DNA from: Escherichia coli
Lineage (GTDB): Bacteria > Pseudomonadota > Gammaproteobacteria > Enterobacterales > Enterobacteriaceae
Length of the DNA: 64,000 nt
Assembly (NCBI RefSeq): GCF_009931435.1
Contig: NZ_CP043414.1
Reading direction: 5' to 3' (one strand)
Shown: positions 5,413-63,068 of the stretch, piece after piece
How the letters are laid out: every line of letters begins with the position of its first letter
Position numbering within the stretch: the stretch's first letter is position 1
Program-made: the position numbers and the translations under genes
Notes under the pieces: model-generated
What the model was told of the DNA's origin: nothing
What the model saw: only the letters and a program-made list of their open reading frames with translations
The model's database searches: none

Positions 5413-5473
5413 ACTCACTAAATTAGGTTAAAGAATCAACGATGTCAATCAGGGCGATGCAGGTGTGTCGCCC

Positions 5474-6094: not shown

Positions 6095-6280
6095 AGGGAA
6101 TCTCCGAGATGCCGCCGCAGGCTGTAACCCTTGAACCCTTGGTTCAAGGTGAATGTGTCGTCGCAGTTTTAAGGCTTCTCGGACGGACCGAGCATGCTCA
6201 CCAACCGCGGAGCGCCACATTCTTGTGGTATGAAATATCGGCTCAGGGGACTGGCCCGCTTGCGAACATCTCAGAGAAAT
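6095..6280 (-). ncRNA. ssrS: 6S RNA (RNA polymerase sigma70 holoenzyme-binding regulatory RNA)
   Basis: Reverse complement reads AUUUCUCUGAGAUGUUCGCAAGCGGGCCAGUCCCCUGAGCCGAUAUUUCAUACCACAAGAAUGUGGCGCUCCGCGG..., the recognised 6S RNA sequence; immediately upstream of ygfA. Confidence 0.93.
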
Positions 6281-16140: not shown

Positions 16141-16286
16141 GATGTCAAACTCAACATTGCCTGATGCACCTCGTTTATCAGGCCTACATAGTCTGTGCAA
16201 TGTATTGAATTTGCACGATCTTGTAGGCTGGATAAGGCGTTCACGCCGCATCCGGCATAATAAAAGCACTTTGTCATCAATAATTT
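16141..16286. repeat. REP/BIME element cluster between gcvP and ygfF
   Basis: Contains gcctgatgcacctcgtttatcaggcctaca and tgtaggctggataaggcgttcacgccgcatccggca, typical REP palindromes. Confidence 0.8.
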
Positions 16287-19744: not shown

Positions 19745-19910
19745 TGCCTTTGTAGGCCTGATAAGACGCGTCAGCGTCGCATCAGGCATCGGATCGCAAC
19801 TGCCGGATGCGGCGTGAACGCCTTATCCGGCCTACGGGCCGCGTCCTTGGTGTGATAAAGGCACCAAATCCCAGGCATGATAAGACGCGTCAGCGTCGCA
19901 TCAGGCAATA
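19745..19910. repeat. REP/BIME cluster (three REP palindromes) between yqfA and ygfZ
   Basis: Repeated gcctgataagacgcgtcagcgtcgcatcaggc and gccggatgcggcgtgaacgccttatccggcctac units. Confidence 0.85.
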
Positions 19911-25952: not shown

Positions 25953-27051
25953 ATGTTTGAAATTAATCCGGTAAATAATCGCATTCAGGACCTCACGGAA
26001 CGCTCCGACGTTCTTAGGGGGTATCTTTGACTATGACGCCAAGAAAGAGCGTCTGGAAGAAGTAAACGCCGAGCTGGAACAGCCGGATGTCTGGAACGAA
26101 CCCGAACGCGCACAGGCGCTGGGTAAAGAGCGTTCCTCCCTCGAAGCCGTTGTCGACACCCTCGACCAAATGAAACAGGGGCTGGAAGATGTTTCTGGTC
26201 TGCTGGAGCTGGCTGTAGAAGCTGACGACGAAGAAACCTTTAACGAAGCCGTTGCTGAACTCGACGCCCTGGAAGAAAAACTGGCGCAGCTTGAGTTCCG
26301 TCGTATGTTCTCTGGCGAATATGATAGCGCCGACTGCTACCTCGATATTCAGGCAGGTTCTGGCGGTACGGAAGCACAGGACTGGGCGAGCATGCTTGAG
26401 CGTATGTATCTGCGCTGGGCTGAATCGCGTGGTTTCAAAACTGAAATTATCGAAGAGTCGGAAGGTGAAGTGGCGGGTATTAAATCCGTGACTATCAAAA
26501 TCTCCGGCGATTACGCTTACGGCTGGCTGCGTACAGAAACTGGCGTTCACCGCCTGGTGCGTAAGAGCCCGTTTGACTCCGGCGGTCGTCGCCACACGTC
26601 GTTCAGCTCCGCGTTTGTTTACCCGGAAGTCGATGATGATATCGATATCGAAATCAATCCGGCGGATCTGCGCATCGACGTTTATCGCGCATCCGGCGCG
26701 GGTGGTCAGCACGTTAACCGTACCGAATCTGCGGTGCGTATTACTCACATCCCAACCGGGATCGTGACCCAGTGCCAGAACGACCGTTCCCAGCACAAGA
26801 ATAAAGACCAGGCCATGAAGCAGATGAAAGCGAAGCTTTATGAACTGGAGATGCAGAAGAAAAATGCCGAGAAACAGGCGATGGAAGATAACAAATCCGA
26901 CATCGGCTGGGGCAGCCAGATTCGTTCTTATGTCCTTGATGACTCCCGCATTAAAGATCTGCGCACCGGGGTAGAAACCCGCAACACGCAGGCCGTGCTG
27001 GACGGCAGCCTGGATCAATTTATCGAAGCAAGTTTGAAAGCAGGGTTATGA
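25953..27051 (+). CDS. prfB: Peptide chain release factor 2, requires programmed +1 ribosomal frameshift at codon 26 (CTT TGA C)
   Basis: ATG at 25953 gives [25 protein letters not shown] then in-frame TGA at 26028-26030; +1 frame continues as [13 protein letters not shown]... to 27051 (track ORF 26170..27051); GGQ motif present. Confidence 0.93.
26016..26031 (+). other. prfB autoregulatory +1 frameshift site (internal SD AGGGGG + CUU UGA C)
   Basis: Sequence agggggtatctttgac read directly. Confidence 0.9.
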
Positions 27052-38046: not shown

Positions 38047-40917
38047 TTATATTTTTTCCAGCGCGGTGAGTATTTTCTCCGGTGTGAAATGCCATTCGCG
38101 TAACCAGATGCCGCAGGCATCGTGAATTGCGGTAGCAATCGCCGGAGCTGCGCCATTTACACCGATTTCTGAGATTGATTTCGCCCCGAATGGGCCGACT
38201 TTATCGTCGCTCGGCACCAGCACAGCGCGGAAATCACGCGGAATGTCACCAATTTTCGGTGCGCCGTAACTGCGTAAATCACGCGTTAACGGGTGGCCTT
38301 CGGCGTCATAAATGATTTCTTCGCTCATACTGTGCCCGATAGCACGCAGGGTGGCTCCGTAGATTTGTCCCAACGCTAACTCTGGATTGACCGGTGTACC
38401 ACAGTCCAGCAAGGCGTAGAATTTATCCAGGCGGATTTCACCCGTACGTGTGTTGACGGCAACTTCAGCAAAGTTTGCGCCATACGGGAAGGCGAAATCA
38501 GGCGTGATATAACTGGCAGTTCCCACCAGTGAACCAAAACCGGTGCCGGTTTCGCCTTTATGGGCAATATCCCCGAAACTAACTTCGCCTTTCTTGCCGC
38601 GCACGACGCCCGGCGTTGCTAGTTGAACATCTGCCACTGGCTCACCCAACATTTGCGCGCCGTGGAACAGAATTTTATCCCGCAGATTTTCCGCTGCCAA
38701 ACGCGCCGCGTTACCCGAGAAGCAAGTACCGGACGAGGCATATGCGCCTTTATCAAACAACGCATGATCGGTATCACCGGAGATAACATGCACGTCCTGC
38801 GGTGGGCAGTGCAGCACTTCTGCTGCCAGTTTCGTCACCACGGTATCCAGACCAGTACCAATATCCGCACCGCCAGAATGAACAATAAAGGTACCGTCCG
38901 ATTCCAGTTTAATCATGCAGTTAGCCTGATCGATATCCGGGATCCCCGATTTCTGCATGATAATGGCGACGCCGCGACCGATGTGCCAGTCACCATTTTG
39001 CGGTTTTGGTGAAGACCATTGGATCATCTCGCGACCCTGACGCAGGATCTCTTCCAGCGCGCAGCTGGCGGCGGAAGGAACGGAGGTCGGCGCTTTACCT
39101 TCACCAATCGCACCGAGAATTTTCAGCTCTTGCCCTTCGTGTACCCGGTTACGTTCGATAATTTCCAGTTGGTCGATCTGTAACTGTTCAGCCAGTTCCG
39201 CTAATGCCATAGTGATAGCGAAGTTACCTTTCGGTGCACCATAACCCTGATAAGCACCATTTGGACAAATGTTGCTGTAGTAGGTGGTGACCTGGAAATC
39301 GACGTTATCGCACGGATATAACGGCAGCGACAGCGCCGGTCCGTTACATGGTACGGTGAGTGAGTGATTGCCGTAAGGGCCTGTGTTGGCGCGGAAATCC
39401 ATCTTCACGGCCGTCAGGCGACCATCTTTCTTTGCCCCCAGTTTGACGGTGACTTTCGCGACGTGACGAGAGGTGTTAGCAATAAACTCTTCTTCACGGG
39501 TGTAGCGGAACAGTACCGGACGCCCGGTCACGCAGGTTGCCCAGGCGCACACTTCTTCCAGCAGGATGTCCTGTTTAGACCCAAAACCGCCGCCAACTCG
39601 CTCTTTAATTACATGAACTTTATGTTGTTTCATGCCCACGAGGCGCGCGACCTGGCGGCGTAAGTGCCATGGTACCTGGGTGGAGGCGTGGATAACCAGA
39701 CGATCGCCGTCCATACGGGTAAAGCATATATGAGTTTCAGTCGGGCACTGCTGCGCCTGCGTTGAGTTATAGGTTCGCTCAATGATCACATCGGCATCGG
39801 CAAAGCCTTTGTCCATATCGCCAATATGACCATGAATACTGGCGGCGATATTTTTACGGGGGCGAGAACCGATCGGGAAGTTGATGATCATATGCTCGCC
39901 GCGCTGGGCTGCATGGCTGTTATCGTCTTCCAGAGTATCTGGCGCACCAGCAACATACACCACCGGTTCATCGTGCACGACAGGCGCATCTTCCGCCATT
40001 GCCTCGTCAATCGACATTACAGGTTTAAGCACTTCATATTCAACGTCGATGAGCTTCAGTGCTTCGAGCGCAATTTCTTCACTTTCTGCGACGACCGCAG
40101 CAACGCGATCGCCGACGTGACGCATTTTCTTGCCGAACATACGGCGGTCAAGCGGTGACGGTTCCGGTGCGCTCTGACCACCCGGGGTGTAGTAGATATC
40201 CGGGCAATTCAGATGAGTAATAACGTGGACGACGCCTGGTAAGGCTTCAGCTTTGCTGACATCCAGGTGAGTAATCAGTGCGTGAGCGTGAGGGCTACGT
40301 AACATTTTAATGACGCAGGCGTCAGCCGTTACGCGGTCTTCAACATAGCAGGGTTTCGCCTGCACCATTTTTGCGGCATCAGTTTTAGGATAATGCTTAC
40401 CAATGACTTCAAGGTCATCGCGGAAAGTCGGAGCGATATCAATGGTGGCCTGCGGGTTATTTTTACGTGCAACCGCCAGTTCAATGACCTGATAGTATTG
40501 TTGCCAGCCTGCATCGCGACTGAACAAACCAGAAAGCGCGTCGTCGATCTCTTCGCGGGTCGGTGCGGCGATACGCTCGAGCAGATCAGTGATAATCAGA
40601 GCCGCAGCTGGATCGTTATAACCAGACTGCACCACGCCAACATCAACCATTGCCTGTTGAACCAGACTTAACTCGTTCCATTTGCCCAGAGACTCTGCGG
40701 TACGAATATCTGCCTTCTCTAACTGTGCGGCGATAAGCAAGGACGCGTTAACGATATTACCGTTAAAGATAATTGCGTCAGAACCGGCAAACCCGAATCC
40801 ATCATCGCTGTTGCGTACAGAGTGCATTCCCATGTTAAACAACAGCTTTTGCACGTTTTCGCCTGGATTAACGGTTAGCTCCTGAGGCGCGCCATTTAAA
40901 GTAAAGTGGATGATCAT
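38047..40917 (-). CDS. xdhD: Molybdenum-hydroxylase family protein with fused N-terminal 2Fe-2S domain and C-terminal molybdopterin domain (xanthine-dehydrogenase-like)
   Basis: Track ORF 956 aa; aldehyde oxidase/xanthine dehydrogenase family features. Confidence 0.88.
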   Translation of the reverse strand: MIIHFTLNGAPQELTVNPGENVQKLLFNMGMHSVRNSDDGFGFAGSDAIIFNGNIVNASLLIAAQLEKADIRTAESLGKWNELSLVQQAMVDVGVVQSGYNDPAAALIITDLLERIAAPTREEIDDALSGLFSRDAGWQQYYQVIELAVARKNNPQATIDIAPTFRDDLEVIGKHYPKTDAAKMVQAKPCYVEDRVTADACVIKMLRSPHAHALITHLDVSKAEALPGVVHVITHLNCPDIYYTPGGQSAPEPSPLDRRMFGKKMRHVGDRVAAVVAESEEIALEALKLIDVEYEVLKPVMSIDEAMAEDAPVVHDEPVVYVAGAPDTLEDDNSHAAQRGEHMIINFPIGSRPRKNIAASIHGHIGDMDKGFADADVIIERTYNSTQAQQCPTETHICFTRMDGDRLVIHASTQVPWHLRRQVARLVGMKQHKVHVIKERVGGGFGSKQDILLEEVCAWATCVTGRPVLFRYTREEEFIANTSRHVAKVTVKLGAKKDGRLTAVKMDFRANTGPYGNHSLTVPCNGPALSLPLYPCDNVDFQVTTYYSNICPNGAYQGYGAPKGNFAITMALAELAEQLQIDQLEIIERNRVHEGQELKILGAIGEGKAPTSVPSAASCALEEILRQGREMIQWSSPKPQNGDWHIGRGVAIIMQKSGIPDIDQANCMIKLESDGTFIVHSGGADIGTGLDTVVTKLAAEVLHCPPQDVHVISGDTDHALFDKGAYASSGTCFSGNAARLAAENLRDKILFHGAQMLGEPVADVQLATPGVVRGKKGEVSFGDIAHKGETGTGFGSLVGTASYITPDFAFPYGANFAEVAVNTRTGEIRLDKFYALLDCGTPVNPELALGQIYGATLRAIGHSMSEEIIYDAEGHPLTRDLRSYGAPKIGDIPRDFRAVLVPSDDKVGPFGAKSISEIGVNGAAPAIATAIHDACGIWLREWHFTPEKILTALEKI

Positions 40918-41693
40918 ACGGCTTCCTCCCCAGCCTGTTGGCAGTCGGCATAAAGGTCGGCTACCAGAACTCCCGTGATATAGCGTTTATAGGCCACGCT
41001 GCCCCGCAAATCTTCCTGCGGGAAAATGGCGTTGGCGACAGCCTGTTCAAGTGCATTGCCTTCCAGGTTTTGTTTTTCAACATCGTGCAGACGCAGTGCT
41101 TTACTGGCCACGCCATCCAACGCAATTCGCATACCGTCGTGATCGGTAAACGCAACGGCTGCCGTTACTACCGTTAACCCAGCCTGAGAACGGCTAATTT
41201 TGCGAGTCGCACAGGTGCGATACGGATCTTTAATGATGATTTCGGTTAGCAGGTGATCGCATGGGCAGGCCAGGTACTCCTCAATTGACAGAGTTTCACC
41301 GTTGCCAAAAACCAGTTCGGCATCTAGTGCCAGCAGGACGGGAAGCAGCACCGACTCTTCCTGCCGGGCGGCGATTTCACCACCAATGGTCGACTGATTA
41401 CGAATATGGCGAGAATAGACAAAGCCGAGAGCCTCACGCAGTGCTGCAGGAATAAACCGTGCATCACGCAGTGTTTGCAAGCGAGACATCGCGCCAATCC
41501 GCAATGCACCGTTATCCCAGTCAACCCAGTCCAGTTCCAGATCCTGTAAGGATATGGCAATCTTTTTATCGGTACGGGTTGGTGTGGCGTTGAGTTTACT
41601 GCCTCCGGCGAACCAGACGGCTTCATCCTGGTAGCGGCGCTTCAGTTCCAGCGCCTGTTCGACAGAGTCGGGCCTGAAAAATTGTTCAATCAT
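40914..41693 (-). CDS. ygfM: FAD-binding subunit of molybdopterin dehydrogenase (CO dehydrogenase medium-subunit-like)
   Basis: Track ORF 259 aa; 4-nt overlap with xdhD start. Confidence 0.85.
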   Translation of the reverse strand: MIEQFFRPDSVEQALELKRRYQDEAVWFAGGSKLNATPTRTDKKIAISLQDLELDWVDWDNGALRIGAMSRLQTLRDARFIPAALREALGFVYSRHIRNQSTIGGEIAARQEESVLLPVLLALDAELVFGNGETLSIEEYLACPCDHLLTEIIIKDPYRTCATRKISRSQAGLTVVTAAVAFTDHDGMRIALDGVASKALRLHDVEKQNLEGNALEQAVANAIFPQEDLRGSVAYKRYITGVLVADLYADCQQAGEEAV

Positions 41694-43074: not shown

Positions 43075-46000
43075 TTACACCTCCACGCGGCCCAGCAGAT
43101 AATGATGATGCTGGTGGACATGGCTAATGATGCGGCACATATCGTTCAGCTCCGGTGGTACGTTGTTGAACTGACCTTCGCTGTCGATGTTTAACACCCA
43201 GCTTTGGTTATTCAGACGTACTCGTACCCGGCAATCTTCCACAAGGAAGCCTGGGTTGCTGCTGTTATCAAAGTCTTGCGACAGGCTGAAGACGGTGATT
43301 TTGTCTTTGTACGGTTTACCGTTCCACGGACAGAACTGAGCACAGTTGCCGCATTCGTTACAGTAAGCGTCGAGGTGCAGCGTCTGGAAACGGTTCTGGA
43401 AGCCAGGGACCGCAATGGATACGTTGGCGCGGTTCGGGCAGACATCCACACACTTGCTGCAAACGTAGTTACATTCAAGGCAGCGAGCGGCTTCCTGGGC
43501 GACAAACGCGTCACGATCGTCGCTATCCACCAGGGTGATAGAGATATCGCCTTTGCGTTGATAGATTTCCGCCGGATTGACGTTGTTCCAGTATTTATCG
43601 TTCTGGTGGGAACGGATATTTTCCCGACTAAGGATGGCATCGGTAGCCCGACGCGCAGTTCCGACAGCAGCGACAATGGAGGATGGTCCGCGCTGTACGT
43701 CGCCGATCATAAAGACGTCAGTCAGACGAGTTTCGCCATTATGGTCGACGTCTGGCCAGCCATTTTTGTCCAGCGGCACGCCCATCGCATTCAGGGCTTC
43801 AGTATCCTGCTGTTCGCCAATGGCGGTGATCAGGCTGTCTACATGCAGTGTTACTGTTTCGTTGGTTTCAACCGGACGGCGACGACCTTTCTCATCAGGT
43901 TCGCCAAGCGACATAACGCGCAAGGTTAAGGTGCCATCAGCATCGAAACGTTCCGGATTATTCAGGAAACGGAACTCCACGCCGTCGTGCAACGCTTCTT
44001 CATACTCTTCGCGCCATGCGGGCATCTCTTGCAGTGAACGACGATAAACGACCGTTGCTTTTTCTACGCCTGGAACGCGTAACGCCGCACGAGCGCAGTC
44101 CATTGCGGTGTTACCCGCCCCGACAACGACCACATGCTTGCCCAGCTTGAGCGTAGTGCCTTTGTTGTATTCACGCAGGAAGGGGAGTGATTTCCACACA
44201 TTTTGGTTGTCGCCCGCCAATTTCACACCGCTATTTTTATCAGTGCCGGTGGCAATCAGAACATAGTGGAAGCCCTGATTTTTTAACTGTTCAACGGTCA
44301 GATCGGGTGAGCAGCCATACTCAAATTTCACGCCGTGAGCGGCAACAAAATCGATATCGTGCTGAATTAACTCTGCAGGAATACGGAACTGAGGAATGAT
44401 ATTTTTCACCACGCCGCCCGCATTGGCTTCGCGTTCAAACAGCGTAACCGGATGGCCCGCTCTGGCAAGGAAGTAACCTGCTGCCAGACCCGCCGGACCT
44501 GCACCAATCACGGCAACCGGATGGCGTGAACCAGAACCGGCTGGTTTGTGCCAGCGTTGCTTATATTCATCCCAACCTTTTTCCAGCGCGACTTTTTTCA
44601 GTTCGCGGATATTCAGCGCACTGTCGTAATCCAGGCGGGTACAGTTGTATTGGCACTGGTGATCGCAAATATGACCGGTAATGGCGGGCAGGGCGTTGCG
44701 TTGGTAGATGAGTTCCAGTGCGTCGGCATAGCGGTGTTCGCCAAGCAGACGGATGTATTCCGGAATATCCTGTTTAATGGCGCAAGCAGTAACGCACGGT
44801 GCAACGTAGCAGTCGGTCAGCGGCAGGTCTTCTGCCACTTCAATACGCTCTTCTGGCTTCCAGTGTTTCTGCGTGTATTCCATGGTTAACGCGTCTGCTG
44901 CCAGTTTGTTCAGTCGTTCGACGTCAACATGGTCAAGCCCCCAGGCGTCGGAGCCTTCCAGCTCGCGCATGCAGGCACTTAAGCGCAGATAGCCGCCAGG
45001 TTTCAGCAGGTCGGTTGCCATAGTAATAGGGCGAATACCAGTATCAAAAATATCGCGGATAGTCAGCTGACTGGCACCACCGGAATAAGAAATGGGCAGT
45101 TTGCCGTCAAAGGCGCGAGAGAGAACTGCTGCAACATTGATGGAGAGCGGGAACAGCGCACGGCCTGACATATACATCTCTTCACCAGGCAGTGCACCTT
45201 TGTTATTAATGGTGCCGAGGGTATTGGTCAGTTTGACGCCAAAGCCGAGTGATTTTTCTTTTGCCAGTACCATCAGGCGTTCCAGCATTTCCAGCGCTTG
45301 CGTCAGCTTGAGGTCGTGATCAAATGACTCTTCTTTTAAGCCTATGTAACCGAAACCGCAGACATCGAGGATCTCACGAACACGCGCGTACCCCAGTAAG
45401 GTCGGGTTGAGTTTCACAAAGGTATTGAGCCCTTTTTCTTCCAGCATGTAGCGGCAAATGGCTTCGATTTCATGCGGAGGACAGCCGTGCATCGTGGAGA
45501 GGGTAACGCCTTGTACCATGCTGGTGGGGATGCGTGCCGGTAAGGCCTGCAAGCATTCGCGTTTTTCCTGTAAGCCGTGGCGGGCTAAAAATGCGTCATC
45601 CTGGAGTAATTTATTCAGCGTATCGCGATATTGAGCGAATTTCGGATGGTCAGATGCGTCCATCATATTATCGATGAACTGTTGCATCGGCGGTTGCTTA
45701 ATACCTTCGAGGTTGTAACCGACGCTCATATTAAAGATGAACGATTTACCGGAATCAGAAGGCTGGAACATCGCTTCGAGAAGGTGCAGGGCAAACCAGG
45801 CTTTGAGGTATTCATCCCAGGCTTTAAGCAGGGTAAATTCGGTGGACCATTCGGTGTTAAAGCACTCGTCTTCGGCATCAATACAGGGCTTTTCCAGCTC
45901 CAGGCGGTCAAGAATTTGGACGGTTTTTAGTTCGATGAAGCGTCCGCCAGTCAGCCAGGATGTGACAATATTTTGCGCGAGCTGCGTGTGCGGACCAGCG

Positions 46001-46173
46001 GCAGGGCCGACGGGAGTGGCACAGGTTTCACCGAAGACGCTAACAGTTTTACCTTTTACGGGTGAGTAAAACTGTTGCTCGGGAATACCAAAGATTGAGC
46101 GTTGTTGTTGGTATTCATCAAATATGCGCGTCAAAAGTTCCTCAAACGGAATGGGACGCATAATATCCCCCAT
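43075..46173 (-). CDS. ygfK: Large Fe-S / FAD-NAD(P) oxidoreductase (historically annotated putative selenate reductase subunit YgfK)
   Basis: Track ORF 1032 aa; GAGPAG dinucleotide motifs and C-terminal Cys clusters (CxxCxxCxxxCP). Confidence 0.88.
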   Translation of the reverse strand: MGDIMRPIPFEELLTRIFDEYQQQRSIFGIPEQQFYSPVKGKTVSVFGETCATPVGPAAGPHTQLAQNIVTSWLTGGRFIELKTVQILDRLELEKPCIDAEDECFNTEWSTEFTLLKAWDEYLKAWFALHLLEAMFQPSDSGKSFIFNMSVGYNLEGIKQPPMQQFIDNMMDASDHPKFAQYRDTLNKLLQDDAFLARHGLQEKRECLQALPARIPTSMVQGVTLSTMHGCPPHEIEAICRYMLEEKGLNTFVKLNPTLLGYARVREILDVCGFGYIGLKEESFDHDLKLTQALEMLERLMVLAKEKSLGFGVKLTNTLGTINNKGALPGEEMYMSGRALFPLSINVAAVLSRAFDGKLPISYSGGASQLTIRDIFDTGIRPITMATDLLKPGGYLRLSACMRELEGSDAWGLDHVDVERLNKLAADALTMEYTQKHWKPEERIEVAEDLPLTDCYVAPCVTACAIKQDIPEYIRLLGEHRYADALELIYQRNALPAITGHICDHQCQYNCTRLDYDSALNIRELKKVALEKGWDEYKQRWHKPAGSGSRHPVAVIGAGPAGLAAGYFLARAGHPVTLFEREANAGGVVKNIIPQFRIPAELIQHDIDFVAAHGVKFEYGCSPDLTVEQLKNQGFHYVLIATGTDKNSGVKLAGDNQNVWKSLPFLREYNKGTTLKLGKHVVVVGAGNTAMDCARAALRVPGVEKATVVYRRSLQEMPAWREEYEEALHDGVEFRFLNNPERFDADGTLTLRVMSLGEPDEKGRRRPVETNETVTLHVDSLITAIGEQQDTEALNAMGVPLDKNGWPDVDHNGETRLTDVFMIGDVQRGPSSIVAAVGTARRATDAILSRENIRSHQNDKYWNNVNPAEIYQRKGDISITLVDSDDRDAFVAQEAARCLECNYVCSKCVDVCPNRANVSIAVPGFQNRFQTLHLDAYCNECGNCAQFCPWNGKPYKDKITVFSLSQDFDNSSNPGFLVEDCRVRVRLNNQSWVLNIDSEGQFNNVPPELNDMCRIISHVHQHHHYLLGRVEV

Positions 46174-46254
46174 AACCCTCTCCTTAGCTTATACAGATAT
46201 CATTGAGTGACCGGTGTTGAGAAATCCGGTGGTTTAGGGGGATAGAGCAACAAT

Positions 46255-46271
46255 CGCACCACTCTTGCCAG
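46255..46271 (-). promoter_or_regulatory. Candidate sigma54-like promoter upstream of ygfK: minus strand CTGGCAAGAGTGGTGCG (GG-N10-GC)
   Basis: Read directly; ~85 nt upstream of ygfK ATG; -12 element GTGC deviates from TTGC. Confidence 0.35.
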
Positions 46272-46494
46272 GTTTGGCGGGAAATATAAAAAAATGTGAG
46301 GCGGCTCGAAACTTAAGGGCTTTTTGTGAATGAACTCACAGGTGCCAAATGAGAATTAAAATCACTCCTGGGAATTATTATTACCAGCCCATTTATCACT
46401 TTTTCTCTTTTCTCAAAATCAGTGATTCCTTATCATAATGATAAAGCAGGCTGGATGGTTTAAATATTTGAACGCAAACGTTTAACTACGTTTT

Positions 46495-47073
46495 CTAAAT
46501 TTCAGTATACCTTTTTTGCGCTGTAATAAAGTCGTCCGGAGTATCAATATCTAAAATTATTTCTGCATTCTCTATTTCGACGGAATAATGTTCTCCCATA
46601 AGGAGTGCCTGACGCATATTGGTGACATTGGGTCGCTGGGTTGCCTGCATCAGGCATGGCTTTGACACTAAAATCGGATGGCCGGGGATACCTTTATGGA
46701 GTGGCAGTATTGCGCCATCATTACGTAACGACCAGATTTTTCTAAAAATATCGATGGTGAGGGTTGGCATGTCACCGTGGGTGAGAAAACAATGTTCGGT
46801 TTGCACCGCGGGTACTGCGGCCTTTACTGATGTCAGTAAACCCTGCGCATAATTTGGGTTGTGGATAATAGTGATATTACTCTGGTTCGCATAACGTTCG
46901 TGCAGTTCATTACCACGATAGCCGGTGACTAAAATAATTCGGCTACAAAACTGCAACGCATTTTTGATACTTGCATCAAGAATTGTTCCCTCTTGCCAGG
47001 GTAACATCATTTTCCATTGCCCCATTCTTGATGATAATCCGGCAGCGGTAATTATACAGTCGATGGCTGACAT
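46495..47073 (-). CDS. mocA: Molybdenum cofactor cytidylyltransferase
   Basis: Track ORF 192 aa; nucleotidyltransferase N-terminal motif IITAAGLSSRMG. Confidence 0.88.
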   Translation of the reverse strand: MSAIDCIITAAGLSSRMGQWKMMLPWQEGTILDASIKNALQFCSRIILVTGYRGNELHERYANQSNITIIHNPNYAQGLLTSVKAAVPAVQTEHCFLTHGDMPTLTIDIFRKIWSLRNDGAILPLHKGIPGHPILVSKPCLMQATQRPNVTNMRQALLMGEHYSVEIENAEIILDIDTPDDFITAQKRYTEI

Positions 47074-47175
47074 AGTGGTTCCATTATTAATAGGGGCTAA
47101 TAACGCCTGTTAATTGCGTTACTTCCTGATGGATTAAGTTGGGGATAATTTATCCCAGAGAGGTCATAAAGACTC

Positions 47176-47946
47176 GTGAAAAGTATAGTTGACCCATCGG
47201 CATTATTCATTGATTTAGGCGCGCAGAAACGCCCCACTGTGATTTCTGTTGTTGGGGCTGGGGGGAAAACCAGCTTGCTTTTTTGGCTGGCAGAACTGCT
47301 CCAGGCTAGCGGCAGGCGTGTGTTAATCACTACGACGACACATATGTTTATGCCAACGTCTCACTGGCCCGTGGTTTTCTGTCGTGATCCCGCCATGCTT
47401 CCTCATACGTCTCTTACATCCCCCATTTCATTTTGTTTTCACAGCTGGAAAGCGAACCAGGGAAAAGTGCAGGGATTTATGCCAGAAGCGATTGATGCAC
47501 TGGTGCAACGACCAGAGTGTGACGTAATTCTCATTGAGGCAGATGGCTCGCGTGGAATGCCGTTAAAAGCGCCTGATGAGCACGAACCTTGCATACCCAA
47601 AAGCAGTTGCTGCGTGATTGCTGTGATGGGAGGACATATTTTGGGTGCGAAAGTGAGCACAGAAAATGTCCATCGCTGGTCGCAGTTTGCTGATATTACC
47701 GGGTTAACACCTGATGCAACCTTGCAACTGAGCGATCTCGTTGCGCTGGTTCGCCACCCTCAGGGCGCATTTAAAAACGTACCGCAAGGTTGTCGGCGAG
47801 TCTGGTTCATTAACCGTTTTTCTCAATGTGAGAATGCGATTGCGCAAAGCGAGCTCCTTCAACCGCTGCAACAACACGACGTAGAGGCAATCTGGCTGGG
47901 CGATATACAAGAACATCCTGCAATCGCGCGCAGATTTGTGAATTAG
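47176..47946 (+). CDS. yqeC: Selenium-dependent hydroxylase accessory protein YqeC family (GTG start)
   Basis: Track ORF 256 aa; P-loop-like VVGAGGKTS. Confidence 0.85.
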   Translation: MKSIVDPSALFIDLGAQKRPTVISVVGAGGKTSLLFWLAELLQASGRRVLITTTTHMFMPTSHWPVVFCRDPAMLPHTSLTSPISFCFHSWKANQGKVQGFMPEAIDALVQRPECDVILIEADGSRGMPLKAPDEHEPCIPKSSCCVIAVMGGHILGAKVSTENVHRWSQFADITGLTPDATLQLSDLVALVRHPQGAFKNVPQGCRRVWFINRFSQCENAIAQSELLQPLQQHDVEAIWLGDIQEHPAIARRFVN

Positions 47947-47993
47947 CGGCCCGGGTATTCCGGGTTACTGAAAGGATATCCATTGAGGTTGGT

Positions 47994-49619
47994 ATGAATA
48001 TTTTCACAGAGGCTGCAAAACTTGAAGAGCAAAATTGTCCGTTTGCGATGGCGCAAATTGTTGATAGCCGAGGCTCGACTCCCCGCCATTCTGCACAAAT
48101 GTTAGTGCGCGCCGATGGTTCTATCGTCGGTACAATTGGTGGTGGAATGGTTGAGCGGAAGGTGATTGAAGAGTCGCTTCAGGCATTGCAGGAACGTAAG
48201 CCGCGATTATTCCATGGACGTATGGCTCGTAACGGTGTGGATGCTGTCGGGTCAGATTGTGGAGGTGCAATGTCCGTGTTTATCAGCGTCCATGGTATGC
48301 GTCCTCGTCTGGTGTTGATTGGCGCGGGGCATGTCAACCGGGCGATAGCCCAGAGTGCGGCGCTATTAGGATTTGATATTGCCGTTGCCGATATTTATCG
48401 CGAAAGCCTTAATCCTGAATTATTCCCACCATCAACCACGCTTCTCCATGCTGAGTCGTTTGGTGCGGCAGTGGAAGCACTGGATATTCGCCCTGATAAT
48501 TTTGTCCTGATTGCCACGAATAATCAGGATCGTGAAGCCCTCGACAAACTCATTGAACAGCCCATTGCATGGCTGGGGTTGCTGGCAAGTCGCCGCAAGG
48601 TTCAGCTTTTCCTACGTCAATTGCGTGAGAAAGGCGTGGCTGAAGAACATATTGCCCGTTTACATGCGCCCGTTGGTTACAACATAGGTGCGGAAACGCC
48701 GCAGGAGATCGCCATCAGCGTGCTGGCAGAAATATTACAGGTGAAAAATAACGCGCCGGGTGGGCTGATGATGAAACCTTCTCATCCTTCCGGACACCAG
48801 CTGGTGGTGATTCGCGGTGCGGGGGATATCGCCAGTGGTGTGGCGCTACGTCTGTATCATGCGGGTTTTAAAGTGATCATGCTGGAAGTGGAAAAGCCGA
48901 CGGTGATTCGTTGTACCGTGGCGTTTGCCCAGGCTGTGTTCGACGGCGAAATGACGGTCGAAGGTGTTACTGCCCGTCTGGCAACCAGCTCTGCTGAGGC
49001 GATGAAACTTACCGAACGCGGATTCATCCCTGTGATGGTAGATCCCGCCTGTTCATTGCTTGATGAACTGAAACCGCTTTGCGTGGTGGACGCTATTCTG
49101 GCGAAACAGAATTTGGGTACGCGGGCAGATATGGCACCAGTAACAATCGCGCTTGGGCCGGGCTTTACTGCTGGGAAGGATTGCCATGCGGTAATTGAAA
49201 CAAATCGCGGGCACTGGCTCGGTCAGGTGATTTACTCTGGTTGTGCGCAGGAGAATACCGGTGTTCCCGGCAATATTATGGGGCATACCACCCGACGGGT
49301 GATCCGTGCTCCTGCTGCAGGCATTATGCGATCCAACGTGAAATTAGGCGATCTGGTGAAAGAGGGCGATGTGATTGCCTGGATTGGTGAGCATGAAATT
49401 AAAGCACCATTGACGGGGATGGTGCGTGGCTTGTTGAACGACGGACTGGCGGTGGTCGGTGGTTTTAAAATTGGTGATATCGATCCACGTGGTGAAACGG
49501 CTGATTTCACCAGCGTTTCTGATAAAGCCCGGGCAATTGGCGGCGGCGTACTTGAGGCGTTAATGATGTTGATGCATCAGGGCGTTAAAGCGACAAAAGA
49601 AGTGCTGGAAGTGGCTTAA
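47994..49619 (+). CDS. yqeB: Selenium-dependent molybdenum hydroxylase system protein YqeB (XdhC/CoxI-family)
   Basis: Track ORF 541 aa. Confidence 0.85.
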   Translation: MNIFTEAAKLEEQNCPFAMAQIVDSRGSTPRHSAQMLVRADGSIVGTIGGGMVERKVIEESLQALQERKPRLFHGRMARNGVDAVGSDCGGAMSVFISVHGMRPRLVLIGAGHVNRAIAQSAALLGFDIAVADIYRESLNPELFPPSTTLLHAESFGAAVEALDIRPDNFVLIATNNQDREALDKLIEQPIAWLGLLASRRKVQLFLRQLREKGVAEEHIARLHAPVGYNIGAETPQEIAISVLAEILQVKNNAPGGLMMKPSHPSGHQLVVIRGAGDIASGVALRLYHAGFKVIMLEVEKPTVIRCTVAFAQAVFDGEMTVEGVTARLATSSAEAMKLTERGFIPVMVDPACSLLDELKPLCVVDAILAKQNLGTRADMAPVTIALGPGFTAGKDCHAVIETNRGHWLGQVIYSGCAQENTGVPGNIMGHTTRRVIRAPAAGIMRSNVKLGDLVKEGDVIAWIGEHEIKAPLTGMVRGLLNDGLAVVGGFKIGDIDPRGETADFTSVSDKARAIGGGVLEALMMLMHQGVKATKEVLEVA

Positions 49620-49659
49620 ATGAAAATGGCCGGATGGTATTACCCACCCGGCCTTTAAA

Positions 49660-50592
49660 TTACTGACAAATCACCGTTCCGGTTTTGCCTTCAATCCCTT
49701 CTTTCGCTTTGCTCAATACGGTAATCAGTGCTTCGCGTCCAGCGCGAGAGCGAGCAAACGAGGCGGCTGCTTCCACTTTAGGCAGCATAGAACCTTTCGC
49801 AAAATGACCTTCTTCGATAAAGCGTTCAGCATCACTTAATGACAGGCGATCGAGCCACTGTTCGTTCTCTTTACCGAAGTTAATGGCCACTTTTTCTACC
49901 GCAGTCAGAATGATCAGCATATCGGCATCAATCATTTCTGCTAAACGGGCGCTGGCCCAGTCTTTATCGATAACCGCACTGGCACCGCGCAGATGGTTGC
50001 CTTCACGAATAACAGGAATGCCACCACCGCCAACGGTGATCACCACCTGGCCTGCTTCTACCAGCGCTTTTACCGTCTCTTTTTCAATGATATCAACCGG
50101 TTTTGGTGAAGCAACAACACGGCGATAGCCGCGACCAGCATCTTCTTTCAGGGTGTAGCCCTGTTTTGTCAGAAGTTCAGCTTCCTGCTCGGTAAAGAAC
50201 GAACCGATCGGTTTGGTCGGGTTGAGGAATGCCGGATCGTTAGCGTCGACTTCGACCTGGGTCACCAGAGTGACAACGGGTTTATGAATGCCACGGGAGA
50301 GCAACTCTTCCCTTAAGGCGTTTTGCAAATCGTAACCAATATATCCCTGGCTTAAGGCAACACAGACAGACATCGGCAGCATTGGCGAGTGCGCTTCAGT
50401 TTTTGCGGCGGCTTCAAAGGCCTGGTTAATCATGCCTACCTGCGGCCCGTTACCATGAGTGACGATGACCTCATGTCCCTGGGCAATTAAATCAACAATT
50501 GCCTGAGACGTAATTTTTACCGCTTTCATTTGTCCGGCTAGATCGTCGCCCAGCGCATTCCCGCCCAGGGCGAGAACAATTTTCTTACTCAT
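49660..50592 (-). CDS. yqeA: Carbamate kinase-like protein
   Basis: Track ORF 310 aa; amino acid kinase family N-terminus MSKKIVLALGGNALG. Confidence 0.88.
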   Translation of the reverse strand: MSKKIVLALGGNALGDDLAGQMKAVKITSQAIVDLIAQGHEVIVTHGNGPQVGMINQAFEAAAKTEAHSPMLPMSVCVALSQGYIGYDLQNALREELLSRGIHKPVVTLVTQVEVDANDPAFLNPTKPIGSFFTEQEAELLTKQGYTLKEDAGRGYRRVVASPKPVDIIEKETVKALVEAGQVVITVGGGGIPVIREGNHLRGASAVIDKDWASARLAEMIDADMLIILTAVEKVAINFGKENEQWLDRLSLSDAERFIEEGHFAKGSMLPKVEAAASFARSRAGREALITVLSKAKEGIEGKTGTVICQ

Positions 50593-55882: not shown

Positions 55883-55899
55883 AACAATAAGTGTGCCAG
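55883..55899 (-). promoter_or_regulatory. Candidate sigma54-like promoter upstream of ygeW: minus strand CTGGCACACTTATTGTT (perfect TGGCAC, -12 TTGT)
   Basis: Read directly; ~95 nt upstream of ygeW ATG; -12 GC replaced by GT. Confidence 0.3.
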
Positions 55900-56267: not shown

Positions 56268-58046
56268 ATGGAGCTTGCTACTACGCAGTCAGTATTGATG
56301 CAAATTCAACCGACAATTCAGCGTTTTGCCAGAATGCTTGCCAGCGTTTTGCAGCTTGAGGTTGAGATCGTTGATGAAAACTTGTGTCGCGTCGCCGGAA
56401 CGGGCGCGTATGGGAAGTTTCTTGGCCGCCAGTTGAGCGGCAACTCACGCCTGCTCCGCCACGTCCTGGAAACGAAAACTGAAAAAGTTGTGACACAGTC
56501 TCGCTTCGATCCCCTTTGCGAAGGTTGCGATAATAAAGATAATTGTCGCGAAAAAGCATTTCTGGGTACGCCTGTCATTTTACAGGATCGTTGTGTTGGG
56601 GTGATAAGTTTGATTGCAGTTACCCACGAGCAACAAGAACATATCAGTGATAATTTACGCGAGTTTTCTGATTACGTTCGCCATATATCCACCATTTTTG
56701 TTTCGAAACTTCTGGAGGATCAGGGACCAGGAGATAACATCAGTAAAATATTCGCGACCATGATCGATAATATGGATCAGGGCGTATTAGTTGTTGATGA
56801 CGATAATCGGGTTCAGTTTGTTAATCAGACGGCCTTAAAAACACTCGGTGTTGTGCAAAATAATATTATTGGGAAACCTATCCGTTTCAGACCATTAACA
56901 TTTGAGAGTAATTTTACCCACGGACATATGCAACATATTGTTTCGTGGGACGATAAAAGTGAATTAATCATTGGCCAATTGCATAACATTCAGGGCAGAC
57001 AATTATTTTTAATGGCGTTTCACCAATCGCATACCAGTTTTTCTGTAGCAAATGCACCTGATGAACCGCATATTGAACAATTGGTTGGCGAGTGCCGTGT
57101 TATGCGGCAATTAAAACGACTCATTAGCCGTATTGCGCCCAGCCCATCCAGCGTTATGGTGGTTGGTGAAAGCGGCACGGGTAAAGAAGTCGTCGCGCGT
57201 GCAATCCATAAGTTGAGTGGAAGACGAAATAAACCCTTTATTGCTATCAACTGTGCCGCGATTCCTGAACAACTTCTGGAGAGCGAACTATTCGGTTATG
57301 TTAAAGGCGCATTTACTGGCGCTTCAGCCAACGGTAAAACAGGGTTGATTCAGGCGGCGAATACGGGCACGCTGTTTCTCGATGAAATTGGTGATATGCC
57401 ATTAATGTTGCAGGCTAAATTACTGCGCGCTATTGAGGCGCGTGAAATACTGCCGATTGGTGCCAGTAGCCCAATTCAGGTCGACATCCGAATCATTTCT
57501 GCAACTAACCAGAATTTGGCCCAGTTCATTGCCGAAGGTAAATTCCGCGAAGATCTCTTCTACCGACTCAATGTTATCCCGATCACTCTTCCACCGCTGC
57601 GTGAACGTCAGGAAGATATTGAACTGCTGGTACATTACTTTTTACATCTGCATACCCGTCGTCTGGGATCGGTTTATCCTGGCATTGCTCCCGATGTCGT
57701 CGAGATATTGCGTAAGCATCGTTGGCCCGGAAACCTGCGCGAGTTAAGCAATTTAATGGAATATCTGGTTAACGTTGTTCCTTCAGGTGAAGTTATCGAC
57801 AGCACGCTATTGCCTCCAAATTTGCTGAATAATGGCACAACGGAGCAAAGTGATGTAACAGAGGTCAGCGAGGCGCACTTGGCACTCGATGATGCGGGCG
57901 GCACGGCGCTGGAGGAGATGGAAAAGCAAATGATCCGCGAGGCGCTTTCACGTCATAGCAGCAAGAAGCAAGTTGCTGATGAACTGGGTATCGGCATTGC
58001 TACGCTCTATCGCAAGATAAAGAAATATGAGTTGTTAAACGCATAA
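56268..58046 (+). CDS. ygeV: Sigma54-dependent transcriptional activator (bacterial enhancer-binding protein) with N-terminal sensor region, AAA+ domain and C-terminal HTH
   Basis: Track ORF 592 aa; Walker A GESGTGKE, GAFTGA sigma54-contact motif, C-terminal HTH. Confidence 0.9.
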   Translation: MELATTQSVLMQIQPTIQRFARMLASVLQLEVEIVDENLCRVAGTGAYGKFLGRQLSGNSRLLRHVLETKTEKVVTQSRFDPLCEGCDNKDNCREKAFLGTPVILQDRCVGVISLIAVTHEQQEHISDNLREFSDYVRHISTIFVSKLLEDQGPGDNISKIFATMIDNMDQGVLVVDDDNRVQFVNQTALKTLGVVQNNIIGKPIRFRPLTFESNFTHGHMQHIVSWDDKSELIIGQLHNIQGRQLFLMAFHQSHTSFSVANAPDEPHIEQLVGECRVMRQLKRLISRIAPSPSSVMVVGESGTGKEVVARAIHKLSGRRNKPFIAINCAAIPEQLLESELFGYVKGAFTGASANGKTGLIQAANTGTLFLDEIGDMPLMLQAKLLRAIEAREILPIGASSPIQVDIRIISATNQNLAQFIAEGKFREDLFYRLNVIPITLPPLRERQEDIELLVHYFLHLHTRRLGSVYPGIAPDVVEILRKHRWPGNLRELSNLMEYLVNVVPSGEVIDSTLLPPNLLNNGTTEQSDVTEVSEAHLALDDAGGTALEEMEKQMIREALSRHSSKKQVADELGIGIATLYRKIKKYELLNA

Positions 58047-58085: not shown

Positions 58086-58565
58086 TTACTTCGTTTTCTC
58101 GCAATCCAGAACTGTATTTACAATCATCTGATACCCCGTGCAGCGACAAAGATTTCCCGCCAGGCCGCGACGAATCTCCGTAATAGTTAATGGCTTCTCG
58201 CGTGGTTTCGCCAGCATTGCCGTGGTAGCCATAATCAGGCCAGGCGTACAAAACCCGCACTGCACCGCGCCGGATTTCGCATAAGCTTGCTGGACATGAG
58301 AAAGTTTTCCGCCTTTCGCTTCACCTTCCAGCGTGCGGATTTCTTTGCCTTCAGCCCAGGCGGCAAGGTATAAGCAACTGTCTATCGCAGTACCGTCGAC
58401 CAGCACCGTACAGGCACCACATTCACCCACGCAGCAACCTTGCTTGACGCTTAGCAGCCCTTGTTCGCGGAGTAATTCCGAGAGCGGCGTGCCTGGCGCG
58501 GCGTGAAGCTGAAAAGGTATCCCGTTAATGGTGCATGCGATGGTAATTGTTTCGCTGTGATTCAT
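58086..58565 (-). CDS. xdhC: Xanthine dehydrogenase Fe-S subunit (two 2Fe-2S clusters)
   Basis: Track ORF 159 aa; Cys motifs CxxGxCGxC and CGFC. Confidence 0.9.
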
Positions 58566-59440
58566 TGCAATTTTCCCCCCGCCGCGGCGACGGCTTCGCT
58601 AATCACTTTTTTAGTCATCGTCTGGATGAGATGCAGACGAAACTCTTTGCTGGCCCGCCATGAAGAACGCGGGGCGACATCCTGCAGGACTGATTCGCTG
58701 ATGGCTTCCAGCGTTTGCAGGTTTAATGGCGCATTTTGTGCAGTTTGTTCGGCATGTTGGCAGCGAATCGGCGTTGGCGCGGCAACGCCAAATGCCAGGC
58801 GTAATTCGCTGAAATTGCCGTTATCCAGTCGGCAATGTGCGGCACAGCCAATCGTTGAAATATCCATCGCATCGCGCATGGCATATTTAAAATGGGCGCT
58901 GCCTGCGTGTTCTTTCGGCTGGGGCGGAAAATGAAAGGCGACAAGGATTTCGTCATGCTCAAGGGATACTTTGCCCGGTCCGGTGTGGAAGCCATTAATC
59001 GGGACGAAATGAACACCGCGCGGGGAGTGGATCTCCAGCTTCGCATCATAAATTAGCGTTGGCGTGGCAGAATCCGCGCTGGTGGCTCCATTGCAAATAT
59101 TTCCTCCGTAGGTAGCGACGTTACGGATCTGCGGTCCAGCAATGGACGAGGCCGCAGCACATAACGCCGGGAGATGACGTTGAGTTACAGGATCTTCAAT
59201 GAGCTGGGTAAATGTCGTTGCTGAGCCGATGCGTAGCGAGTCATCTTCCGCTAGCGTAATTCCACGAAGCTCCGTCAGATTGTGGATATCAACAATATGG
59301 CGATAACGGTCATTGTGATGGTGGAGCTGAATCAGTACGTCAGTGCCACCGGCGAGCAGTTTGGCCTGTGGGTTGTCAGCCAGCAGGTTTATTGCATCGG
59401 CAAGGGATGCTGCGCGATGGTAAGAAGCAAAATCAAACAT
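58562..59440 (-). CDS. xdhB: Xanthine dehydrogenase FAD-binding subunit
   Basis: Track ORF 292 aa; 4-nt overlap with xdhC. Confidence 0.9.
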
Positions 59441-59450
59441 GATGTTATCC

Positions 59451-61709: not shown

Positions 61710-61802
61710 GCATGATTCACCCGTAGCGGTTGCTTCCCGCGCTTCCATAGAAATCCCCTCGATTTGAACATTTGGTTCTTATGGCAAAGATTTAGTCTAA
61801 GC

Positions 61803-62994: not shown

Positions 62995-63068
62995 GCGGGC
63001 GTAGTTCAATGGTAGAACGAGAGCTTCCCAAGCTCTATACGAGGGTTCGATTCCCTTCGCCCGCTCCA
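62995..63068 (+). tRNA. glyU: tRNA-Gly (anticodon CCC)
   Basis: GCGGGCGTAGTTCAATGGTAGAACGAGAGCTTCCCAAGCTCTATACGAGGGTTCGATTCCCTTCGCCCGCTCCA: 7-bp acceptor stem, anticodon loop CTTCCCAAG, T-loop GGTTCGATTCC, encoded CCA end. Confidence 0.95.

Follow-up and report, generated by a model that had tools for sequence, protein, structure and literature searches.

Among the three ways in which selenium is used in biology, its attachment to the molybdenum cofactor (Moco) is understood least. YqeB and YqeC were proposed by comparative genomics to be genomic markers of the labile, non-selenocysteine selenium trait of molybdenum hydroxylases, and TIGR03309, the model to which YqeB belongs, was confined to genomes possessing selD (Haft & Self 2008, PMC2276186); this proposal, which the first-pass annotation of the present locus adopted, has since been backed by clostridial genetics. 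Growth of Clostridioides difficile on xanthine and urate requires both selD and yqeB, and a yqeB deletion phenocopies selD mutants (PMC11448449), while XDH and 2,8-dioxopurine dehydrogenase (DOPDH) of Clostridium sporogenes are inactive without SelD (bioRxiv 10.1101/2025.04.24.650524). Biochemical demonstration of the trait, that is, cyanide-labile selenium needed for activity, has been given for clostridial enzymes only. A further related system is that of XdhC: Moco is bound by this protein, sulfurated on it by NifS4, and then inserted by it (PMC2997495). As for Escherichia coli, XdhD-YgfM converts urate into 2,8-dioxopurine, of which YgfK is the reductase (PMC12507026). The enzymes concerned act in the anaerobic breakdown of urate and purines in gut bacteria, with a bearing on hyperuricaemia and gout, and E. 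coli is a genetically tractable host with the whole system, which makes its locus a good one for settling the selenium chemistry.

In the window, the whole 64-kb stretch of E. coli DNA analysed here, yqeC and yqeB were found as open reading frames at exactly the positions where the first-pass annotation had placed them (Table 1). The stretch is 99.6% identical across 3301 bases (megablast) to E. coli chromosomes, on which the matching reading frames are annotated yqeC and yqeB, and was found in 5175 of 5426 complete genomes. Family cut-offs are far exceeded: YqeC scored 239.5 bits against TIGR03172 of NCBIfam (cut-off, 73.05) and matched Pfam PF19842 with an E-value of 7.1e-42, and YqeB scored 417 bits against TIGR03309 (cut-off, 220) with all 256 of the 256 model positions aligned to residues 271-526. 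The finding is correct but ordinary, being already annotated and published, and as first written it held nothing beyond the current annotation and literature, in which the two proteins are helpers thought to place loosely bound selenium on the Moco of two purine-degrading enzymes. What can be added to narrow the range of useful experiments is the view of YqeC as a MocA-linked NTPase, the finding that neither family has a conserved cysteine, and the removal of YgfK from the possible selenium acceptors.

Table 1. Features of the yqeC-yqeB locus and its surroundings in the window.
Feature	Position	Strand	Description
xdhD	38047-40917	-	Mo/Fe-S subunit of urate-to-2,8-dioxopurine enzyme; TIGR03313, 2120 bits
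ygfM	40914-41693	-	FAD subunit of urate-to-2,8-dioxopurine enzyme; TIGR03312, 484.7 bits
ygfK	43075-46173	-	Flavin/Fe-S reductase; TIGR03315, 1781 bits
Sigma-54 site upstream of ygfK	46246-46261	-	
mocA (ygfJ)	46495-47073	-	Molybdenum cofactor cytidylyltransferase; TIGR03310, 213.9 bits (cut-off, 186.45)
yqeC	47176-47946	+	256 aa, GTG start; YqeC-family P-loop NTPase
YqeC Walker A, GAGGKTS	47254-47274	+	Residues 27-33
YqeC TTTT			Residues 52-55
YqeC EADG			Residues 121-124
YqeC HEPC			Residues 136-139
Sigma-54 promoter of yqeB, TGAGCACGAACCTTGCA	47577-47593	+	Intragenic; overlaps YqeC codons E135-H136-E137-P138-C139
yqeB	47994-49619	+	541 aa; XdhC-type Moco chaperone half and EF2563/YqeB selenium-linked half
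YqeB N-terminal half	48027-48734	+	XdhC_CoxI, residues 12-74; XdhC Rossmann domain (XdhC_C), residues 106-247
YqeB C-terminal half	48804-49571	+	Residues 271-526; Rossmann-like subdomain, biotinyl/lipoyl-like barrel, then long C-terminal helix
Sigma-54 site upstream of ygeW	55883-55898	-	
ygeV	56268-58046	+	Sigma-54 enhancer-binding protein; matches sigma-54 activator families
xdhC	58086-58565	-	Xanthine dehydrogenase (xdhABC, 58086-61748); NF007387, 337.9 bits
xdhB	58562-59440	-	Xanthine dehydrogenase; NF007427, 527.8 bits
xdhA	59451-61748	-	Xanthine dehydrogenase; NF007426, 1479.9 bits

The earlier statement that no in-frame UGA interrupts the hydroxylase genes is borne out, because none of the 18 cluster genes has an internal stop codon and the family models of XdhA and XdhD could each be aligned over the whole protein; the cluster therefore lacks a selenocysteine gene. 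A search for a concealed one, or for a SECIS element, was negative as well: the cluster has no split reading frames, and Rfam detected no RNA element in it. Three in-frame TGAs with 100 or more open codons to either side occur in the window, all of them outside the cluster, and two are merely adjacent genes sharing a frame. The selD gene, which E. coli carries, does not lie within the window.

Concerning the enzyme that might receive selenium, three hydroxylases had been counted at first, a number that has to be lowered to two catalytic subunits in the window, XdhA and XdhD, located 9.8 kb downstream and 6.3 kb upstream of yqeC-yqeB, respectively. YgfK matches flavin/NAD(P)/Fe-S oxidoreductase families only, with all further matches being GltD/DPD-type NAD(P) flavoproteins; it is a dihydropyrimidine-dehydrogenase-like flavoprotein and neither a molybdenum hydroxylase nor a candidate selenium acceptor. 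Choosing between the two subunits by their similarity to the selenium-dependent XDH had to be given up: against TIGR03311, XdhA and XdhD scored 373.3 and 297.8 bits, both far below the cut-off of 830.45, and the slight lead of XdhA over XdhD in BLASTP with the Moorella enzyme (30% identity, 1e-86, versus 25%, 5e-62) is not decisive. The original remark that the acceptor is not evident from sequence accordingly holds as far as these scores go, but the matter is less open than it implied. The clostridial enzyme catalyzing the same urate-to-2,8-dioxopurine reaction is SelD-dependent, and for this reason XdhD-YgfM is most likely the acceptor, with XdhABC as a second possible one; the published evidence likewise favours XdhD and XdhA. 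The same enzymes have also been connected with selenium in another way, in which the cluster would serve selenate or selenite reduction, with YgfK-YgfM-XdhD as a “selenate reductase” and YqeB/YqeC helping to feed selenide to SelD. Databases still carry the names “putative selenate reductase subunit YgfK” and “Se_sel_red_Mo”, and selenate-reduction genetics were cited by Haft & Self (PMC2276186), but such a role is highly improbable now that purine substrates and mutant phenotypes have been defined for XdhD-YgfM and YgfK (PMC12507026; bioRxiv 2025), and YqeB has a domain of the cofactor-chaperone type rather than one for reduction or transport.

The N-terminal half of YqeB contains the Pfam domains XdhC_CoxI (PF02625, E-value 9.8e-20) and XdhC_C (PF13478, 1.2e-32), and its relatives in PDB, 2we7 (1.2e-26) and 3on5, are both XdhC-like. 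The score of YqeB against TIGR02964, 109.9 bits, falls below the cut-off of 161.6, and so its relationship with XdhC is, as judged from sequence, homology at the domain level and not that of an equivalog. The C-terminal half has no invariant cysteine across the aligned family, nor does its fold point directly to selenium chemistry. Its barrel lacks the modified lysine that biotinyl/lipoyl carriers conserve at the hairpin tip, and with a Pfam match of only E 0.05 a biotin- or lipoate-type swinging arm was rejected, as was the idea that the Rossmann subdomain is a duplicated XdhC_C (hhalign probability 1%, E 0.05). A sequence search found no solved structure of this domain or of YqeC. The domain shares 52-63% identity with the YqeB proteins that stand alone in clostridia, Moorella, and spirochaetes, and therefore it has likely kept the same function.

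This identity bears on the possibility that in E. coli the two proteins act as ordinary chaperones of the cytosine-dinucleotide molybdenum cofactor (MCD), supplying XdhD and XdhABC with a cofactor that is sulfurated rather than selenated, and that the family's selenium link does not hold in this organism. Such a role agrees with the bona fide XdhC-type domain in the N-terminal half and with the fact that XdhD and XdhABC have no XdhC homologue other than YqeB at their disposal (PMC2997495). In addition, active E. coli XdhD-YgfM has been purified without selenium or a selenium supplement being mentioned, and no experiment in the searchable literature shows selenium in, or a selenium requirement of, E. 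coli XdhD or XdhABC. The selenium of rich medium is, however, sufficient for the formate dehydrogenases of E. coli, and therefore the activity of XdhD-YgfM obtained without added selenium proves little. Together with the closeness of the C-terminal domain to stand-alone YqeB and the confinement of the family to selD genomes, this makes the ordinary role unlikely, although a selenium dependence of any enzyme of the E. coli cluster is itself an inference.

YqeC is a SIMIBI-class P-loop NTPase. The Walker A, TTTT, E-x-D-G, and K-x-P-x-x-H-E-P motifs are all present in the protein and are invariant or nearly so across phyla. Cys139, at the end of the HEPC sequence, is invariant across 30 proteobacterial sequences, but Firmicutes, spirochaetes, and Chloroflexi have Val or Ala at its position; therefore, Cys139 as a carrier of selenium or persulfide was rejected where a catalytic residue of the whole family is meant. 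The conservation of this residue in proteobacteria may be partly fixed by DNA, as the CCT TGC of Pro138 and Cys139 is the -12 element of the yqeB promoter. The sigma-54 site TGAGCACGAACCTTGCA, which has a single exact match in the window, corresponds to IS34, whose mutation abolishes YqeB protein (Bonocora et al. 2015, PMC4591121), and the CCT-TGC codons are the same in six of six proteobacterial yqeC genes, leaving their synonymous sites frozen across six genera. As others have shown, transcription of yqeB starts from this separate promoter within yqeC, so that expression of the pair is not simply shared. The product of ygeV is a candidate activator of the sigma-54 promoters of the cluster, and sigma-54 activators also adjoin the module in three other loci (L003, L004, and L010). 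A role of the pair in anti-phage defence was considered and dropped, as PADLOC gave no match.

The gene neighbourhoods connect YqeC with MocA. In the window, mocA is divergent from yqeC across an intergenic region of 102 bp (47074-47175), and the order mocA, yqeC, yqeB with this divergence is retained in Klebsiella, Morganella, Aeromonas, Psychromonas, and locus L010. A GTDB sample comprised 47 loci, representing different species, in which yqeC has 3 kb or more of DNA to either side. Of these, 72% encode YqeB within 3 kb, 62% MocA (17% as a fusion with YqeC), and 62% XdhC; at least one of the three was present in 46 of the 47 loci, and six had MocA and neither YqeB nor XdhC. Among the 30 loci that extend at least 9 kb to either side, 80% have a molybdenum hydroxylase within 10 kb. 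YqeC-MocA fusions, in which both domains exceed the curated cut-offs, exist in Moorella and many others; of the 120 proteins most similar to the Moorella fusion, all but one (119) have both Pfam domains, some fusions also possess a HAD pyrophosphatase-like domain, and in three loci (L011, L012, and L013) the fusion gene has no yqeB within 9 kb. Selenium-related contexts surround yqeB as well: the Moorella gene adjoins a selenium-dependent XDH (TIGR03311, 1577.8 bits), and yqeC-yqeB is followed by a NifS-like gene in L005 and by XdhC, NifS-like, YedE, TusA, and Se_S_carrier genes in L006.

One possible, if tentative, explanation of these fusions and yqeB-free loci is that YqeC, far from being a selenium protein, is a MobB-like NTPase partner of MocA in MCD synthesis and hand-over, leaving the EF2563 domain of YqeB as the only selenium-specific part. 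The SIMIBI P-loop fold and the Val or Ala in place of Cys139 outside proteobacteria are consistent with such a role. So is the lack of phenotype of the C. difficile yqeC deletion, and deletion of mobB is likewise known to be without phenotype. YqeC as a homologue of MobB was rejected, with no sequence match and MobB absent from the top structural matches, and the functional analogy alone is retained.

Taken as a whole, we somewhat favour the idea that yqeC, yqeB, and the divergent mocA form a module of MCD maturation with selenium exchange, working for two xanthine-oxidase-family enzymes. MocA would first add CMP to Mo-molybdopterin, a reaction shown by others in E. coli. By homology with Rhodobacter XdhC, the XdhC-like N-terminal half of YqeB would then hold the finished cofactor, and the fused C-terminal EF2563 domain might direct the replacement of a terminal molybdenum ligand by selenium, via SelD, on the YqeB-bound cofactor, an exchange taking the place of the NifS-dependent sulfuration of ordinary XdhC systems. 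The last step is suggested by the fusion, the strict co-occurrence with selD, the clostridial genetics, and the selenium-gene neighbourhoods. YqeB would finally insert the selenated cofactor into apo-XdhD-YgfM and probably into apo-XdhABC. Nucleotide hydrolysis by YqeC is most likely coupled to the hand-over of the cofactor between MocA and YqeB, with YqeC itself not carrying selenium, and no selenocysteine would take part in the proposed pathway. Points that speak against this scheme are the purification of active XdhD-YgfM described above, the YqeB C-terminal half with neither an invariant cysteine nor a telling fold, and the C. difficile yqeC deletion without phenotype. It is conceivable, though we would not yet lean on it, that the pair is half of a four-part module, consisting of MocA, YqeC, XdhC, and the YqeB domain variously fused by lineage, in which YqeC is a nucleotide-driven hand-over factor of MocA and no selenium carrier, the cysteine-free EF2563 domain alone is selenium-specific, and in proteobacteria the Cys139 and Pro codons may be held in part by the promoter.

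The closest counterparts are EF2563/EF2564 of Enterococcus faecalis and CD3478/CD2071 of C. difficile, which belong to the same TIGR03309/TIGR03172 families as YqeB/YqeC and are, as in E. coli, tied to xanthine-oxidase-family enzymes and purine/urate catabolism. E. coli YqeB differs from its clostridial and enterococcal counterparts, which stand alone with about 265 aa, in having the extra XdhC half at the N terminus; moreover, yqeB and yqeC are unlinked in C. difficile, while in E. coli the former is transcribed from its own promoter within the latter. With Rhodobacter capsulatus XdhC-NifS4 and E. coli PaoD, YqeB shares the XdhC-type domain, which binds Moco, provides the platform on which a terminal oxo ligand is exchanged, and delivers the cofactor to the apo-hydroxylase. 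The incoming atom is, however, persulfide sulfur in the R. capsulatus system and presumably selenium in YqeB, where, unlike in R. capsulatus XdhC, the chaperone carries a fused domain that is confined to selD genomes. MocA-YqeC resembles MobA/MobB of bis-MGD synthesis, a guanylyltransferase and a P-loop adaptor that are sometimes fused, in that a Mo-molybdopterin nucleotidyltransferase is paired or fused with a small and genetically dispensable P-loop NTPase, but the nucleotide added is CMP instead of GMP, and the two NTPases have no detectable sequence similarity. Compared with the SIMIBI NTPases of metallocentre assembly, such as UreG, HypB, CooC, and ApbC/Cfd1, YqeC is without a family-wide Cys/His metal-binding motif and has conserved motifs of its own, TTTT, EADG, and LKAPxxHEP.

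The open reading frames of yqeC and yqeB lie exactly where the first-pass annotation placed them, and both products far exceed the curated NCBIfam cut-offs (YqeC, 239.5 bits against TIGR03172, cut-off 73.05; YqeB, 417 bits against TIGR03309, cut-off 220). The window comes from the E. coli chromosome, and the surrounding genes are the known purine/urate cluster. Positions 46400-49700 match NZ_CP074749 at 99.6% identity, and of 5426 complete E. coli genomes, 5175 carry this stretch. This mocA-yqeC-yqeB stretch had no match in the other 251, and one copy in the collection lies on a plasmid. The proposal that YqeB and YqeC are markers of selenium-dependent molybdenum hydroxylases matches the published view (PMC2276186, PMC11448449, 10.1101/2025.04.24.650524). 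Haft and Self (2008; PMC2276186) described TIGR03309 (YqeB), TIGR03172 (YqeC) and TIGR03310 (YgfJ/MocA) as accessory markers of these enzymes, found YqeB restricted to selD genomes and frequently fused to XdhC, and explicitly named this E. coli region. For growth of C. difficile on xanthine and urate, selD and yqeB are required but yqeC is not (Johnstone and Self 2024; PMC11448449), and SelD is required by the XDH and 2,8-dioxopurine dehydrogenase of C. sporogenes, the latter being inactive when purified from a selD mutant (2025 preprint; 10.1101/2025.04.24.650524). Given this earlier comparative genomics and clostridial genetics, the interpretation is the standard one, essentially that already established in the literature; for E. 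coli, it is still an inference.

Positions of the genes, promoter and recoding sites, and RNAs in the window
Feature	Position	Strand	Description
yqeC	47176-47946	+	ORF, 256 aa, GTG start; RefSeq "selenium cofactor biosynthesis protein YqeC"
yqeB	47994-49619	+	ORF, 541 aa; RefSeq [quoted passage not shown]
mocA	46495-47073	-	divergent from yqeC
xdhD-ygfM	38047-41693	-	purine/urate cluster
ssnA			purine/urate cluster
ygfK	43075-46173	-	purine/urate cluster
yqeA, hyuA, ygeY, ygeX, ygeW			purine/urate cluster
ygeV	56268-58046	+	purine/urate cluster
xdhCBA	58086-61748	-	purine/urate cluster
yqeB promoter 17-mer	47577-47593	+	sigma-54, inside yqeC
site upstream of ygfK	46246-46261	-	sigma-54
site upstream of ygeW	55883-55898	-	sigma-54
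prfB site	26016-26031	+	programmed +1 frameshift
Sib antitoxin RNA	5298-5448	-	known RNA outside cluster
6S RNA	6097-6280	-	known RNA outside cluster
ES036	16180-16222	-	known RNA outside cluster
naRNA4	19755-19832		known RNA outside cluster
tRNA	62995-63065	+	known RNA outside cluster

The yqeC-yqeB pair is real and conserved, as follows from the co-location figures of a neighborhood census of 80 yqeC loci (one genome per GTDB species). At the 47 loci flanked by 3 kb or more on each side, YqeB (72%), MocA (62%, with 17% fused to YqeC) and XdhC (62%) are encoded within 3 kb of yqeC, at least one of them at 46 of the 47; at the 30 loci flanked by 9 kb or more on each side, a molybdenum hydroxylase is found within 10 kb in 80% and YgfK in 33%. 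The pair makes up half of a module of four parts, whose fusions vary between lineages. The E. coli order, with mocA divergent from yqeC and the XdhC-fused yqeB following, is kept in Klebsiella, Morganella, Aeromonas, Psychromonas and one further proteobacterial contig. YqeC of Moorella thermoacetica is fused to MocA (locus L002, 8525-9892), each half scoring above its curated cut-off, and the fusion gene adjoins genes for a pyrophosphatase-like HAD hydrolase, a split XdhC, YqeB and a selenium-dependent XDH. The fusion's 120 best homologues (P0241-P0360) include 119 with both Pfam domains; some YqeC-MocA fusions (733-773 aa) have a third, HAD pyrophosphatase-like domain, and no yqeB occurs within 9 kb of three of the fusion genes (L011-L013). 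On a Sphaerochaetaceae contig (L005, 7958-10649), yqeC-yqeB is directly followed by a NifS-like gene, and the order on a Firmicute-like contig (L006, 9289-14424) is yqeC-yqeB-XdhC-NifS-like-YedE-TusA-Se_S_carrier, where the NifS-like protein is an aminotransferase and the YedE-like one a transporter. These neighborhoods point to a dedicated route of selenium or sulfur mobilization. In Geobacter, Desulfobacterales, Holophagaceae and Chloroflexota (L018, L022, L024, L029, L047 and other loci), the yqeC/yqeB/xdhC/mocA module stands beside molybdenum hydroxylase genes without urate-pathway genes; from these loci and the frequency of YgfK, the selenium trait probably serves hydroxylases with other substrates, beyond the urate pathway.

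The first-pass annotation counted three hydroxylases, but the molybdenum hydroxylase subunits of the cluster are only XdhA and XdhD, as YgfK matches exclusively flavoproteins of the GltD/dihydropyrimidine-dehydrogenase type. E. coli XdhD-YgfM converts urate into 2,8-dioxopurine, which is reduced by YgfK, in a 2025 paper that did not address selenium (PMC12507026). The first-pass annotation held that the acceptor is not evident from sequence, which is correct in that sequence alone is undecisive: XdhA (373 bits) and XdhD (298 bits) score below the cut-off (830) of TIGR03311, the "selenium-dependent XDH" model, and share 30% and 25% identity, respectively, with its member adjoining yqeB in Moorella (1577.8 bits). 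The question is, however, less open than was stated, with XdhD the clear front-runner and XdhA second. Our literature search found no paper testing selenium in the E. coli cluster enzymes, and the locus is a good experimental entry to an unsolved part of selenium biochemistry.

That the window encodes no selenocysteine protein stands, because none of the 18 cluster genes contains an internal stop, Rfam detected no RNA element in the cluster, and the three in-frame TGA codons of the window with at least 100 open codons on either side all lie outside it, two of them reflecting neighboring genes that share a frame by chance. Family models aligned end to end with XdhA and XdhD. The sole in-frame UGA in the window that is bypassed via recoding belongs to the prfB frameshift site (AGGGGGTATCTTTGAC), which is unrelated to selenocysteine.

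The model of YqeC (pLDDT 89.9, confident) has the predicted fold of a SIMIBI-class P-loop NTPase, and the family-wide invariants are the Walker A lysine motif, TTTT, E-x-D-G, K131, P138, G197, K200 and N213. The cysteine of the HEPC motif appeared in the proteobacterial alignment as a candidate selenium carrier; since other phyla have Val or Ala at this position, the idea was dropped. Transcription of yqeB was shown to come from a sigma-54 promoter within yqeC, whose mutation abolished YqeB protein (Bonocora et al. 2015; PMC4591121). This 17-mer overlies codons E135-H136-E137-P138-C139, those of the HEPC motif. Among six proteobacterial yqeC genes (the window, L004 and L007-L010; 31-53% protein identity), a small sample, CCT-TGC (P138-C139) recurs without exception and supplies the -12 element TTGC, and the codon preceding His always ends in G; P138 is the only frozen codon among 22 invariant four-fold-degenerate positions. 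Non-proteobacterial yqeC genes, with Val or Ala codons at position 139, have no such site. Codon usage in this comparison suggests DNA-level selection for the promoter at the HEPC codons, which may help explain the confinement of the cysteine to proteobacteria. Both ygfK and ygeW have a sigma-54 site upstream, and each matches a published ChIP-seq site. Considered alongside the ygeV activator gene, these two sites suggest a single sigma-54 regulon spanning the entire cluster, with yqeB part of it.

YqeB contains both domains of the XdhC/CoxI cofactor chaperone (residues 12-74 and 106-247; PDB 2we7, E 1.2e-26), followed by the EF2563 domain (residues 271-526). The latter is unusually conserved, with 52-63% identity to stand-alone Moorella, clostridial and spirochaete proteins, and its model (pLDDT 93, confident) consists of three pieces, including a Rossmann-like subdomain and a long C-terminal helix. 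Its only structural relatives in the AlphaFold database are other YqeB proteins, and the alignment contains no invariant cysteine in this domain. Comparison of its Rossmann part with the XdhC Rossmann domain, of which it might have been a copy, gave no demonstrable relation. Rhodobacter XdhC binds Moco and provides the platform on which NifS4 replaces oxo with sulfur before cofactor insertion, and YqeB is the sole XdhC homologue available to E. coli XdhD and XdhABC (PMC2997495). The main rival explanation, that YqeB and YqeC of E. coli deliver an ordinary sulfurated cofactor, seems rather unlikely to us. We consider a selenium-specific maturation in four steps, taken as a whole, moderately probable. 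MocA makes the cytosine-dinucleotide cofactor, as others have shown; the XdhC half of YqeB would, by homology, hold it; the fused EF2563 half would direct the swap of a terminal Mo ligand for SelD-derived selenium; and YqeB would insert the cofactor into apo-XdhD-YgfM, and probably into apo-XdhABC too. The ligand swap is proposed because EF2563 is fused to the XdhC half and co-occurs with selD, and on the strength of clostridial genetics and of the selenium genes found in yqeC-yqeB neighborhoods.

YqeC, by analogy, most likely couples NTP hydrolysis to the hand-over of the cofactor from MocA. The analogy is with MobB, and is functional only, because YqeC failed every test of MobB homology in both sequence and structure. 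MobB and MobA likewise occur fused, and MobB is also genetically dispensable, a parallel to YqeC that fits the absence of a yqeC phenotype in C. difficile.
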